Below are positions 13,833 through 40,309 of a DNA stretch of 64,000 nt, piece by piece (position 1 is the stretch's first letter; each line of letters opens with the position of its first letter). The notes under the pieces are model-generated. The model was not told the DNA's origin. It did not search any database and saw only the letters and a program-made list of their open reading frames with translations. The stretch is from Klebsiella phage KMI11, in sequence record MN101225.1; one strand, written 5' to 3'. A program made the position numbers and the translations under genes.

Positions 13833-16157
<2,325 letters not shown>

Positions 16158-29514: not shown

Positions 29515-31517
29515 TGAGTAATAGGCTCCAATTTAATAGTTGTGTATTGAGGACGAAGGTCATTCTCAAATACGATAAGTGTTCCATCGCGGGCGAATAT
29601 GATATCCTGAGTAGGAGTAGAGTAAAGCTCAATACTCTGGTCTTCAAATTGAAGAGGATCGGCTCCAATAGCTCCAAGGCTCCAGTAAATATTATCACCA
29701 TAATAATCTACTTCACCGATTTTGTACCAACGAGTTCTTTCGCCGACGGTATTTCTATCAAAATCGTTTTCAGTATATGGCTGGATATGAGTATTCTCTT
29801 TAATGTCACCTGGCTTAAATGGTCCAATGACCATATTTCCTTTACCATTTTTATCTGGGTCAGTTCCAACGATATTAACTGAATACGGTTCAGCAGTTGG
29901 GGTAACAGTAAAGACCAAATCACCAGAACGTAACGTCCGCGGAGTAATAGTATTATAGTATTTAATACCTGCGCTAGGAAGAGTGAAATAGTTGACAATT
30001 TCACGAACCATCTGAATATCCACAGAAGAACCGATGATTGAGTGGTCAGTGTCATCAATGTAAGTCAACAACTTAGATTTACTGAAATTTTTGTTGAACA
30101 TTTCAACTTCATCAACGTAATATCTATTAATCGAGTCTATAATTTTTGACTGTAACCACTGCTCTGATTCTTGCAACTTATTCAATGCATAAGAAGCTTT
30201 AATATTATGACGAATGAATAAGTAATCTGGGCTCATTACCGAAGGAGTAATCGGAGCAAGACAGAAAGGTTTTAGATAATCCTGAATGTCTTCTCTTTGA
30301 ACAGCGGTTAACTGCAACCCAGATTTTGGTTTAATTGCGATAAATGCATATCCGGGTTTGTCCTGATCAGTAAAGCATTGTACTGCTTGTACGATAGAAC
30401 CAAAGCGTGAACTAACGAATGATTCATAGTCAGTTTTAGACACGCAACGCATTTGAGATTCGCGCTTAATCTGGGCTAGCTCACGAATACGCTCTATGTC
30501 TTCAGGTTCACCACCGCCATCAGCGCCAACATAATCAGGAGAATCTGACCAGTTTTCAATGATTCTATTTACTACGATATATTGCAGAGTATCCGCATAA
30601 CTAAATTCAGTCGCGCCGTTAGCAGCTTCACCGTCAGTACGAATATATTCAATAACGACTTGCGCGCCTTTAGTGGGTTTTAATCCACCAATGAAGTTGC
30701 TTTCAAGAACTCCTCCTGCCACAGATGCTTCTGCCACACCTTCACCAAAGAAGAATTCTGTATTTCCATCGACGGTTTCACGCATATAATAAATTGTTGA
30801 AATAGACGAAGCATGAACCATTGATCGGTCTGTCCAGTTAGTCCATTCAGCGCCATCCACCCACAGCTTAACCTGCTTGCGGTCAATTGACTGATCGCGA
30901 ATAACAATAGGTTTCTTCGGGTCATATGACAATTGAGTACGAATAATACGTCCTTGTGCCAAATTAACAATGGGCCAATATTTCTGGTCGTTATCACGAA
31001 TAGCCACAACGTTTTCAGTAACAACGAAGTTATATGGGTTGGCTTTATCGGATTTTGAGTATGCTAAAAATTTAGTTCCTCGTGGAATTACAACTCTCAG
31101 CGTGCTGCTCGGGTTCATGTGAGTTACCTCAAGCATAATAGATGCAGTAGCCGCTGATTTGGAACTTGGCAAATACCCGTTTTGTTGAGCTGCTTGAACA
31201 ACGGAACTTCTCAAGTTAGCTGTTCCAATAAAGCTTTCGTATAAAGCAGTATTACTAAATTGCTGTATGTAAAGCGTGTTATATGCTAATAAGTCTAATA
31301 GCACGTTTAAACGCGAACCAGCAAAATCAAAGTCCTGAAACTCTTTTTGACCGCTAAGCCAGTTAATAAGCTGATTTTTAATTTCATCGAATGTTGCTCC
31401 AGTAAATGCGTCTGGGATAGCGTTTGCAGTACGCGTTAACTGATAATTTAAAGGTTCTTTAATAGCCATTAGTGTATGAATACCTTTGAGCTTGATTGCG
31501 CGACAGTGTCGCCACAA
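29511..31517 (-). CDS. 6: baseplate wedge protein gp6
   Basis: 668 aa (T4 gp6 is 660). Confidence 0.85.
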
Positions 31518-39047: not shown

Positions 39048-39134
39048 GGGGAGTTAGACCGTAGGGGTAGCGGGACAGACTGTAAATCTGTTGCTCAAAA
39101 GGCTCGAGTGGTTCGACTCCATTACTCCCCACCA
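39048..39134 (+). tRNA. tRNA-Tyr (anticodon GUA), type II with a long variable arm
   Basis: Hand-folded cloverleaf: 7-bp acceptor GGGGAGT/ACTCCCC, anticodon loop CUGUAAA, long variable arm, T-arm GGTTCGACTCC, 3' ACCA. Confidence 0.75.
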
Positions 39135-39140
39135 AATTTA

Positions 39141-39217
39141 GGGATACTAGCTCAGTTGGTTAGAGCACCGGACTTTTAATCCGGGTGTCCGAAGTTCGAG
39201 TCTTCGGTGTCCCACCA
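39141..39217 (+). tRNA. tRNA-Lys (UUU)
   Basis: Canonical cloverleaf with anticodon loop CUUUUAA and T-loop TTCGAGT, ending CCA. Confidence 0.8.
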
Positions 39218-39222
39218 AATTC

Positions 39223-39307
39223 GGGTCGTTGGCTGAGAGGGTAAGCGACGGACTGTTAATCCGTGTCAGAAATGACTAGGCAGGTTCGATACCTGCACGG
39301 CCCGCCA
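39223..39307 (+). tRNA. type-II (long variable arm) tRNA with anticodon GUU (Asn codons); identity uncertain
   Basis: Acceptor GGGTCGT/ACGGCCC, anticodon stem ACGGA/TCCGT, loop CUGUUAA, 15-nt variable hairpin, T-arm GCAGGTTCGATACCTGC, ending CCA. Confidence 0.55.
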
Positions 39308-39429
39308 AATGAAGAAGTCAGAAGACGTTCTGATAAAATCGTCGGCACAGAAATCCCTGGCATGGCGTTTGTATTAAGGAGTATGATTTCATCCTGCTTA
39401 ATGCTTGTTCATGTTATAATTTCTTACGG

Positions 39430-39550
39430 CGTTGAAAGTTCGCTTTCAGGGATACATCTTAGAGCAGAGTGTTAAACAAGATTCATCTGGTACCAAGGTG
39501 ATGAGAGCCCTGTTCCCCTTTGCTTCGGCATCGTGCCAGAGTATCTCTGA
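39430..39550 (+). ncRNA. candidate structured small RNA between tRNAs (analogous to the T4 RNA C / RNA D slot)
   Basis: Local hairpin TGAAAG-TTCG-CTTTCA. Long-range complementarity between 39436-39458 (GAAAGTTCGCTTTCAGGGATAC) and 39527-39546 (GTATCTCTGAAAGCGAA). No plausible ORF. Confidence 0.35.
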
Positions 39551-39561
39551 AAGCGAATTAT

Positions 39562-40224: not shown

Positions 40225-40309
40225 GGAGAGTAGCGCTAGTGGTAGCAAACCGGACTTGAAATCCGGGCCATCGGAAACGGTGAGGGTTCAACTCCTTTAC
40301 TCTCCGCCA
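40225..40309 (+). tRNA. tRNA-Ser (UGA), type II
   Basis: Acceptor GGAGAGT/ACTCTCC, anticodon loop CUUGAAA, long variable arm, T-loop TTCAACT, GCCA. Confidence 0.8.

Follow-up and report, generated by a model that had tools for sequence, protein, structure and literature searches.

Bacterial tRNAs carry a long variable arm, by the standard rule, only if they are tRNA-Leu, tRNA-Ser or tRNA-Tyr (and tRNA-Sec), for which the arm is an identity mark. Nematode nev-tRNAs are charged with leucine and so mistranslate. These and the bacterial allo-tRNAs are the nearest precedents for a long arm joined to a class-I amino-acid anticodon (PMC7954030, in the portion citing Hamashima et al.; PMC7609411), and allo-tRNAs take their amino acid from identity elements of the body (Ser/Ala) (PMC7609411). 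Here, we describe a tRNA of comparable shape at positions 39223-39307 of a 64,000-nucleotide stretch of Klebsiella phage KMI11 (MN101225.1; the whole stretch is 'the window' below), which combines the anticodon GUU of tRNA-Asn with an extra arm of 15 nucleotides (nt). Unlike allo-tRNAs and nev-tRNAs, its body has an identity set that agrees with the anticodon, with no recoding signature. The gene itself is already annotated in hundreds of genomes and is not new in itself; long-armed tRNA-Asn is a widespread, phage-restricted and structurally stereotyped class, with a parallel in tRNA-Thr, that seems to have gone undescribed in the searchable literature. The standard rule is thus broken by a sizeable share of phage tRNA-Asn, comprising about 13% in an IMG/VR sample and those of more than 600 enterobacterial phages, T5 included.

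The closest characterised relative is the tRNA-Asn(GUU) of phage T5, with about 79% identity to the window tRNA. Both have the extra-arm architecture, G73, the anticodon loop CUGUUAA and a tRNA-Asp as the next gene downstream. The T5 tRNA has 83 nt, an arm GUC-GAAA-GAC followed by a 3-nt tail, and differs by C28U/G42A in the anticodon stem, by its 3-base-pair (bp) arm and by a 4-bp D-stem, whereas the window tRNA keeps the host nucleotides at 28-43. Escherichia coli asnT shares with the window tRNA GUU, CUGUUAA, 16 of the 17 nt of the anticodon arm, G73 and CCA, but is a 76-nt tRNA with a 5-nt variable loop, U1-A72, the acceptor strand UCCUCUG, a 4-bp D-stem and the D-loop AGUCGGUA, compared to a 15-nt arm, G1-C72 and a 3-bp D-stem in the phage tRNA.

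Gene and fold of the tRNA

ARAGORN calls an 85-nt tRNA-Asn(gtt) at 39223-39307, and the Rfam model RF00005 matches it over its full length (model positions 1-71) with 49.2 bits against a gathering threshold of 29 (E = 3.5e-10), placing an extra 12 nt as a variable-loop insertion. Folded in isolation, the sequence has as its minimum free energy (MFE) structure an exact cloverleaf with a 4-bp arm (-32.7 kcal/mol, z = -2.5). The features of the gene are as follows.

39223..39307, + strand: tRNA-Asn(GUU) gene, 85 nt, CCA encoded (ARAGORN, Rfam RF00005, MFE fold, RefSeq homologue annotation)
39223..39229, + strand: acceptor stem, 5' strand GGGUCGU, pairing with ACGGCCC at 39297-39303 (7 bp, one U-G)
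39232..39246, + strand: D-arm GCUGAGAGGGUAAGC, 3-bp stem GCU/AGC plus G13.A22, class-II-like
39248..39264, + strand: anticodon arm ACGGA-CUGUUAA-UCCGU
39255..39257, + strand: anticodon GUU, reading AAC/AAU (ARAGORN; invariant in 14 homologues)
39265..39279, + strand: extra (variable) arm, 15 nt, GUCA-GAAA-UGAC-UAG (MFE fold, covariation)
39265-39268 with 39273-39276, + strand: extra-arm stem GUCA/UGAC, 4 of 4 pairs compensatory
39269-39272, + strand: GAAA tetraloop of the extra arm
39277-39279, + strand: unpaired 3-nt tail UAG of the extra arm, its last nucleotide likely nt 48, partner of nt 15
39280..39296, + strand: T-arm GCAGG-UUCGAUA-CCUGC (alignment, MFE fold)
39304, + strand: discriminator G73, part of Asn (and Ser) identity and an antideterminant against leucyl- and tyrosyl-tRNA synthetase (LeuRS and TyrRS; PMC9976931)
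39305-39307, + strand: encoded CCA

The full RNA reads GGGUCGU-UG-GCUGAGAGGGUAAGC-G-ACGGA-CUGUUAA-UCCGU-GUCAGAAAUGACUAG-GCAGG-UUCGAUA-CCUGC-ACGGCCC-G-CCA. Its extra-arm stem begins directly 3' of the anticodon stem (nt 44). All cellular tRNA-Asn have the class-I shape, with a variable loop of 4-5 nt; here the region spans 15 nt and contains a 4-bp stem, and the variable region of at least 10 nt with a stem-loop, along with the 3-bp D-stem, is that of class II.

The initial annotation, made from the sequence alone, had described this cloverleaf, and each of its elements (7-bp acceptor, ACGGA/UCCGU, CUGUUAA, the 15-nt variable stem-loop, T-arm and CCA) lies where it had been placed. Its description of a class-II-shaped body with an Asn anticodon is likewise borne out and extends to the D-arm, and the ARAGORN run it had proposed returned the isotype Asn and the anticodon GUU. 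It had also allowed for a different anticodon-stem register; the register is the same in ARAGORN, Rfam and the MFE fold, three independent methods, which rules out an alternative fold with another anticodon.

Conservation and covariation

Copies with 100% identity to the 85-nt sequence are present in about 148 records of Klebsiella and Enterobacter T4-like phages, and recognisable homologues occur in 620 phage records, nearly all of them annotated as tRNA-Asn. The carriers include T5 and other Tequintavirus, Epseptimavirus, Novosibvirus (Proteus), Karamvirus, Moonvirus, Winklervirus, Marfavirus, Phapecoctavirus, the jumbo phage Muenster and Aeromonas phage PX29, and all 13 homologous loci that we fetched contain, according to ARAGORN, a tRNA-Asn(GUU) of 82-86 nt. 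A blastn search of the tRNA against E. coli genomes returned no match, which is uninformative for so short a query in a very large database.

We aligned 14 homologues from different phage genera and used 500 shuffles as control. GUU and G73 are invariant among them, and the anticodon loop is constant save for one C32U variant. Pairing is maintained in 99.4% of the cells, with changes on both sides at 16 of the 24 pairs; the acceptor stem is 100% paired with all seven pairs compensatory, and so are all four pairs of the extra arm, exemplified by GUC/GAC, AUC/GAU, GUU/AAC and GAG/CUC. None of the 500 shuffles reached the covariation score, and sliding the partner strand out of register lowered pairing to 30-50%. 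Thus, the extra arm, held by compensatory change over at least 10 phage genera, is a selected structure.

These data bear on whether the gene could be a non-functional pseudogene, as the initial annotation had considered for a non-expressed copy. Nothing other than the unusual shape speaks for this; the approximately 148 identical copies, covariation in every helix and the in vivo activity of the T5 homologue make it barely credible. The comparison with tRNA clusters of related phages that had been suggested at the same time yielded long-armed homologues with a covarying arm.

A class of long-armed phage tRNA-Asn

To place the gene among phage tRNAs more broadly, we scanned IMG/VR with a pattern combining the anticodon arm of the window tRNA with a long spacing to the T-loop, which matched at least 120 contigs, and with a second pattern (spacing N{15,40}), which found the long arm on Asn tRNAs that have many different anticodon stems. 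Across all fetched phage loci, ARAGORN identified 136 distinct long-armed tRNA-Asn(GUU) of 81-95 nt. Their variable regions fold at -3.18 kcal/mol compared to -0.59 kcal/mol when shuffled (Wilcoxon p = 5e-23) and share a common anatomy: the stem has 3-4 bp in 103 of 125, 0-1 unpaired nucleotides lie 5' of it (99 of 125) and 3-4 lie 3' of it (99 of 125), and the loop is a GNRA tetraloop in 86 of 125 (69%). The last variable nucleotide covaries with nt 15 (G:C 36, A:U 35), as expected of the Levitt pair. D-stems of at most 3 bp are found in 58% of long-armed Asn tRNAs, compared to 23% of short phage tRNA-Asn, 63% of tRNA-Ser and 48% of tRNA-Tyr, and the loop CUGUUAA is present in 128 of 130.

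For an estimate of frequency, we used a pattern that admits both short and long forms (spacing N{10,38}; canonical short-arm tRNAs have 12-13 nt between anticodon arm and T-loop) on the first 80 IMG/VR contigs. Long-armed forms make up 9 of the 70 verified tRNA-Asn(GUU) (13%), and all nine lie in loci with at least four tRNAs, where they account for 9 of 47. Among 185,579 genomes of bacteria and archaea, the long-arm pattern had no more than 36 matching stretches, and the verified cellular long Asn tRNAs are mostly found in dense arrays of 10-35 tRNA genes, of the mobile-element type, in Micromonospora, Verrucosispora, Methyloprofundus, Agromyces and others. Separately, metagenome-assembled genomes (MAGs) of Saprospiraceae carry the long-arm pattern 2-3 times in tandem, at intervals of about 128 nt and a short way upstream of a normal tRNA-Asn of 75 nt (L145:5498-5796 and L135:4397-4857, also L144, L147, L154 and L162); ARAGORN calls no tRNA in these copies, which may be tRNA-Asn-derived repeats or pseudo-tRNAs.

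An arm without any adaptive role, tolerated as a quirk of an ordinary codon-supply tRNA-Asn and spread by descent and horizontal transfer, would fit the occurrence of both arm forms in phages of the same hosts. It would also sit well with a tRNA cluster that reads only A/U-rich codons in a phage of about 42% GC on a GC-richer host, and the class rule is broken in reverse too, by a T5 tRNA-Leu of 77 nt with a short arm. We nevertheless regard this account as rather unlikely: the arm is kept by compensatory change in at least 10 phage genera, its anatomy, with a 3-4 bp stem, 69% GNRA loops and a 3-4-nt tail, is stereotyped over 136 distinct sequences, the class-II D-arm is co-adapted and the form is nearly absent from cellular genomes, which together indicate phage-specific selection.

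Amino acid identity

Whereas the shape of the tRNA is that of class II, its identity elements point to asparagine. In E. coli, Asn identity consists of G34, U35 and U36 with G73; Leu and Tyr identity need A73, G73 being an antideterminant against LeuRS and TyrRS; and Ser identity is set by the acceptor stem together with G73 and the long arm, seryl-tRNA synthetase (SerRS) reading the tertiary shape (all PMC9976931). The set recognised by E. coli asparaginyl-tRNA synthetase (AsnRS), G34, U35, U36 and G73, is complete in the window tRNA, which supports the fallback in the initial annotation, that of a divergent phage tRNA with its identity elements located elsewhere. Direct comparison with the host sequence further shows nt 28-43 to be identical to E. 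coli asnT. The tRNA-Asn in a Klebsiella prophage record (H129) is identical to that of E. coli, so that the natural host very probably has the same tRNA-Asn.

G73 excludes LeuRS and TyrRS and therefore leaves AsnRS and SerRS as candidates. A73 is present in at least 98% of phage tRNA-Tyr and tRNA-Leu (98% and 99%, respectively), and the window tRNA lacks this Leu identity element. With tRNA-Tyr, both the window's own and those of phages generally, it shares the geometry of an arm whose stem follows the anticodon stem directly, with 3-4 bp and about three unpaired 3' nucleotides, and the Tyr anticodon GUA is one base away from GUU; but tRNA-Tyr has A73 (98%), A36 and the loop CUGUAAA, whereas the window tRNA has G73 and U36 and hence no Tyr identity. 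This shared arm geometry hints at a tRNA-Tyr origin of the class, by GUA to GUU and A73 to G73. In most members of the class, the acceptor stem is of the Asn type with U1-A72, favouring a gain of the arm on an Asn body instead.

tRNA-Ser has in common with the window tRNA a long helical arm, G73, G1-C72, G2-C71 and a class-II D-arm. It differs in its arm stem of 5-7 bp with about one unpaired 3' nucleotide, in A3-U70 (87%) and in its anticodon. The modal arm geometry (unpaired 5' nucleotides, stem, loop, unpaired 3' nucleotides) is 1,5-7,4,1 in phage tRNA-Ser and 0-1,3-4,4,3-4 in long-armed tRNA-Asn, and the window tRNA, with a 4-bp stem and a 3-nt tail, follows the latter; although it has G1-C72, G2-C71 and G73, its 3:70 pair is G-C. 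Long-armed tRNA-Asn as a class (G73 in 92%, 120 of 130; U1-A72 in 62%; 2:71 as C-G in 42% and G-C in 40%) match the profile of short phage tRNA-Asn (G73 81%, U1-A72 65%), whereas phage tRNA-Ser have another (G1-C72 88%, G2-C71 96%, A3-U70 87%). An origin as a point mutant of tRNA-Ser(GCU) to GUU is ruled out, as GUU is invariant in distant homologues and the acceptor is Asn-like, and is also disfavoured by the separate tRNA-Ser(GCU) of phages such as T5.

The codons themselves can be read against T4, which is not known to have a tRNA-Asn gene and so must use that of the host. We aligned T4 gp23, gp20, gp18 and gp17 to their window orthologues under standard translation and found AAY (AAC or AAU) at 76 of 109 T4 Asn positions (70%), compared to 69% for Thr and 66% for Ser, and only seven AAY codons aligned to T4 Ser. 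This normal rate, with T4 using the host tRNA-Asn, suggests that AAY means Asn in the window phage, where the alignments contain no signature of recoding.

Together, these observations go against charging of the class-II body by SerRS, or by LeuRS or TyrRS, which would give Asn codons, fully or in part, the meaning Ser, Leu or Tyr, the possibility put forward in the initial annotation. SerRS does disregard the anticodon, depending instead on a long arm together with G73 and the acceptor stem (PMC9976931, PMC7609411), and the window tRNA offers G73, G1-C72, G2-C71 and a helical arm. We consider this reading very unlikely nonetheless, given the exclusion of LeuRS and TyrRS by G73, an arm of 3-4 bp with three unpaired 3' nucleotides against 5-7 bp and one in phage tRNA-Ser, G-C instead of A-U at 3:70, the Asn-like class profile and the AAY alignments. 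Most members of the class have U1-A72, and 42% have C2-G71, a SerRS antideterminant in E. coli tRNA-Leu (PMC9976931). Expression of the T5 homologue, moreover, helps growth rather than harming it, which is not expected of a Ser-inserting tRNA and favours AsnRS, and proteome-wide missense sits badly with a gene that is conserved in over 600 phage genomes. The gene should thus stay annotated as tRNA-Asn and is not to be taken as evidence of recoding; the findings also explain how isotype classifiers can come to score such phage tRNAs inconsistently.

Probable replacement of host tRNA-Asn and a possible role of the arm

The reading we favour, and hold to be probable, is that of a functional, Asn-accepting phage tRNA that replaces host tRNA-Asn. 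Under established identity rules, host AsnRS would charge it with asparagine, as its Asn identity set is complete and its anticodon arm essentially that of the host; charging by other enzymes appears unlikely, because LeuRS and TyrRS are blocked by G73 and a short arm of the Tyr type poorly matches what SerRS recognises. The charged tRNA would decode AAC/AAU for an AT-rich phage and could substitute for host tRNA-Asn once the latter is depleted.

Such depletion is known from the defence nuclease AriB of PARIS, which cuts host tRNA-Lys, tRNA-Thr and tRNA-Asn at 40|41, in tRNA-Asn at the site UAAUC|C (PMC12409363). Expressed together, the T5 tRNA-Asn, tRNA-Lys and tRNA-Thr restore E. coli growth and phage infection under PARIS (PMC12409363). 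The literature thus links tRNAs of this kind to counter-defence, as host tRNA-Asn is an AriB target and the homologous T5 tRNA-Asn contributes to rescue. Another anticodon-stem nuclease, P2-OLD, cuts after nt 28 and nt 40 (published OLD work). A parallel is offered by the PARIS-resistant tRNA-Lys(UUU) of T5, which is likewise a phage tRNA replacing a host tRNA destroyed by AriB (PMC11464382, PMC12409363), but which has 79 nt, no extra arm and owes its resistance to point substitutions, mapped to U39A, A41C and U16C (PMC12409363).

In the window tRNA, the AriB site UAAUC|C is present in the anticodon arm too, and around 40|41 there are no substitutions relative to the host within nt 28-43. With this region host-identical, any resistance must therefore lie elsewhere, in the arm or at D-loop nt 16-17, where the D-loop AGAGGGU has A16 G17 in place of U16 C17 in the AGUCGGUA of host tRNA-Asn. 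In a published AlphaFold 3 model, one monomer of the AriB dimer holds nt 40/41 and the other D-loop nt 16/17 (PMC12409363), and the extra arm would project from the core 3 nt from the cut site, between these two contact points. On this modelled geometry, the arm might act as a shield that makes the tRNA a poor nuclease substrate, a proposal that we make tentatively; the determinant of resistance could also be, alone or in addition, the change at nt 16-17. If the arm does act as a shield, such 'armoured' tRNAs would represent an evasion route distinct from the known one by point mutation.

More speculatively, and with somewhat greater reserve, long arms on phage tRNA-Asn, tRNA-Thr(UGU) and some tRNA-Lys, tRNA-Cys and tRNA-Glu could be a general structural counter-defence that has so far gone unrecognised. 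Phages would then keep a host-identical anticodon stem-loop for the synthetase, modification enzymes and the ribosome, with a GNRA-capped hairpin beside the anticodon stem sterically excluding AriB and P2-OLD. The variable arm is mentioned nowhere in the PARIS papers (PMC11464382, PMC12409363) or the OLD paper, with 'variable' occurring 0 times in PMC12409363, and papers that use T5 tRNA-Asn and tRNA-Thr experimentally are also silent on it. In the searchable literature, we found no description of long-armed phage tRNA-Asn, which older T5 tRNA sequence papers of the 1980s may mention.

The host-identical anticodon stem-loop, AriB site included, would equally suit an RNA that serves mainly as a competitive, uncleavable ligand of anticodon-stem nucleases, with decoding secondary, and non-productive complex formation by viral tRNAs has been raised as a possibility (PMC12409363). 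A pure decoy, however, would need neither the Asn identity elements nor the encoded CCA nor the canonical T-arm, all of which are conserved, and we therefore think it highly improbable that this is its main function.

Several points weigh against replacement of host tRNA-Asn by an arm-shielded, Asn-accepting tRNA. Class II synthetases such as AsnRS approach the tRNA from the variable-loop side, so that tolerance of the extra arm by AsnRS is an assumption, and how the enzyme accommodates it becomes a question in its own right. The subfamily in enterobacterial phages shares G1-C72, G2-C71, C11-G24, G73 and the helical extra arm with tRNA-Ser, and because of its G1-C72, G2-C71 and G73 the window tRNA could undergo minor serylation. 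In the T5 rescue experiments, the share of tRNA-Asn was secondary, two tRNAs sufficing at high expression, and the arm was not isolated as a factor (PMC12409363). Long arms are rare on phage tRNA-Lys(UUU), the main PARIS target (3 of 99), and occur also on isotypes with no known nuclease (Cys, Glu and Ile-UAU), so that arm and nuclease are linked by correlation only; in the window phage itself, tRNA-Thr(UGU) is short, with 76 nt. The class as a whole nevertheless opens a way to learn how phage tRNAs escape anticodon-stem nucleases.

Genomic setting

The phage is T4-like, of the genus Jiaodavirus, with 97.9% identity over 10 kb to Klebsiella phage KPV15, in whose RefSeq record the same gene is annotated as tRNA-Asn-GTT. 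The window contains a T4-type cluster of 16 tRNAs, all reading A/U-rich codons (phage about 42% GC, host GC-richer), in which tRNA-Asn is single-copy in the 64,000 nt and a separate tRNA-Ser(UGA) is present (ARAGORN). Immediately upstream lie two further genes.

39048..39217, + strand: tRNA-Tyr(GUA) and tRNA-Lys(UUU), upstream of tRNA-Asn (ARAGORN)

Spacers of 6 and 5 nt separate the Tyr-Lys-Asn triplet, of which tRNA-Asn is the third member, and a promoter and terminator scan of the cluster found no terminator-like site between the three genes, which probably derive from one polycistronic precursor. A permissive Rfam scan, along with the promoter and terminator scan, found nothing other than tRNAs in the cluster.

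The 254-nt spacer between tRNA-Asn and tRNA-Asp (39308-39561) has no annotated gene in KPV15 and no Rfam family match. It contains a 22-codon open reading frame (ORF), MKKSEDVLIKSSAQKSLAWRLY, whose ATG lies two bases past the CCA end of tRNA-Asn, and the corresponding spacer of T5-like phages contains a conserved ORF of 61 aa. The tRNA-Ser(UGA) at 40225-40309 of the window is rather degenerate, with only 85 nt and two G-U pairs in the T-stem; it scores 32.3 bits on the Rfam tRNA model and gives a sub-threshold tRNA-Sec match (36.5 versus 47). The tRNA-Lys(UUU) at 39141-39217 has the anticodon stem CCGGA/UCCGG, with C at nt 41, which in E. coli tRNA-Lys is presumably A, and keeps U39 and U16. 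A41C is the 'Mut2' substitution of PMC12409363, reported to inhibit AriB cleavage substantially.

Long and short arms on other phage isotypes

T5 tRNA-Thr(UGU) is also long-armed, at 87 nt (L388:10134-10220; T5_ev212 30133-30219), with an arm like that of tRNA-Asn (one unpaired nucleotide, a 3-bp stem, a tetraloop and four unpaired nucleotides). Among the fetched loci, 9 of 101 distinct phage tRNA-Thr(UGU) have a long arm while keeping the Thr-type G1-C72/C2-G71 acceptor, the others being found in L023, L088, L052, L106, L196, L199, L248 and L264. P2-OLD preferentially targets tRNA-Thr(UGU), which is also a prime target of PARIS AriB. A few tRNA-Lys(UUU), tRNA-Cys and tRNA-Glu have the same arm geometry, each with the acceptor stem typical of its isotype; the rare long-armed tRNA-Lys(UUU), of 86-89 nt with an Asn-type arm, occur in L136:1693 (a tRNA array of a Saprospiraceae MAG), L198, L264 and L352.

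Departures from the class rule in the opposite direction are found in T5 tRNA-Leu UAG and UAA, both class-I-shaped at 77 nt, with A73 and a variable loop of 5 nt (L388:11881-11957 and 16050-16126), and in a total of 86 distinct short tRNA-Leu in phage loci, including the L136, L137, L142 and L165 arrays; that E. coli LeuRS needs no arm, as published, agrees with this. Finally, 15 of 35 distinct phage tRNA-Ile(UAU) are 91-96 nt long, with A73 and a longer arm of another geometry, in which about 4 unpaired nucleotides precede a 4-6 bp stem and the loops share AGAUAAU/AGAUUGG-like motifs (IMG/VR loci L028, L029, L031, L032, L054, L074, L112, L128 and L173).

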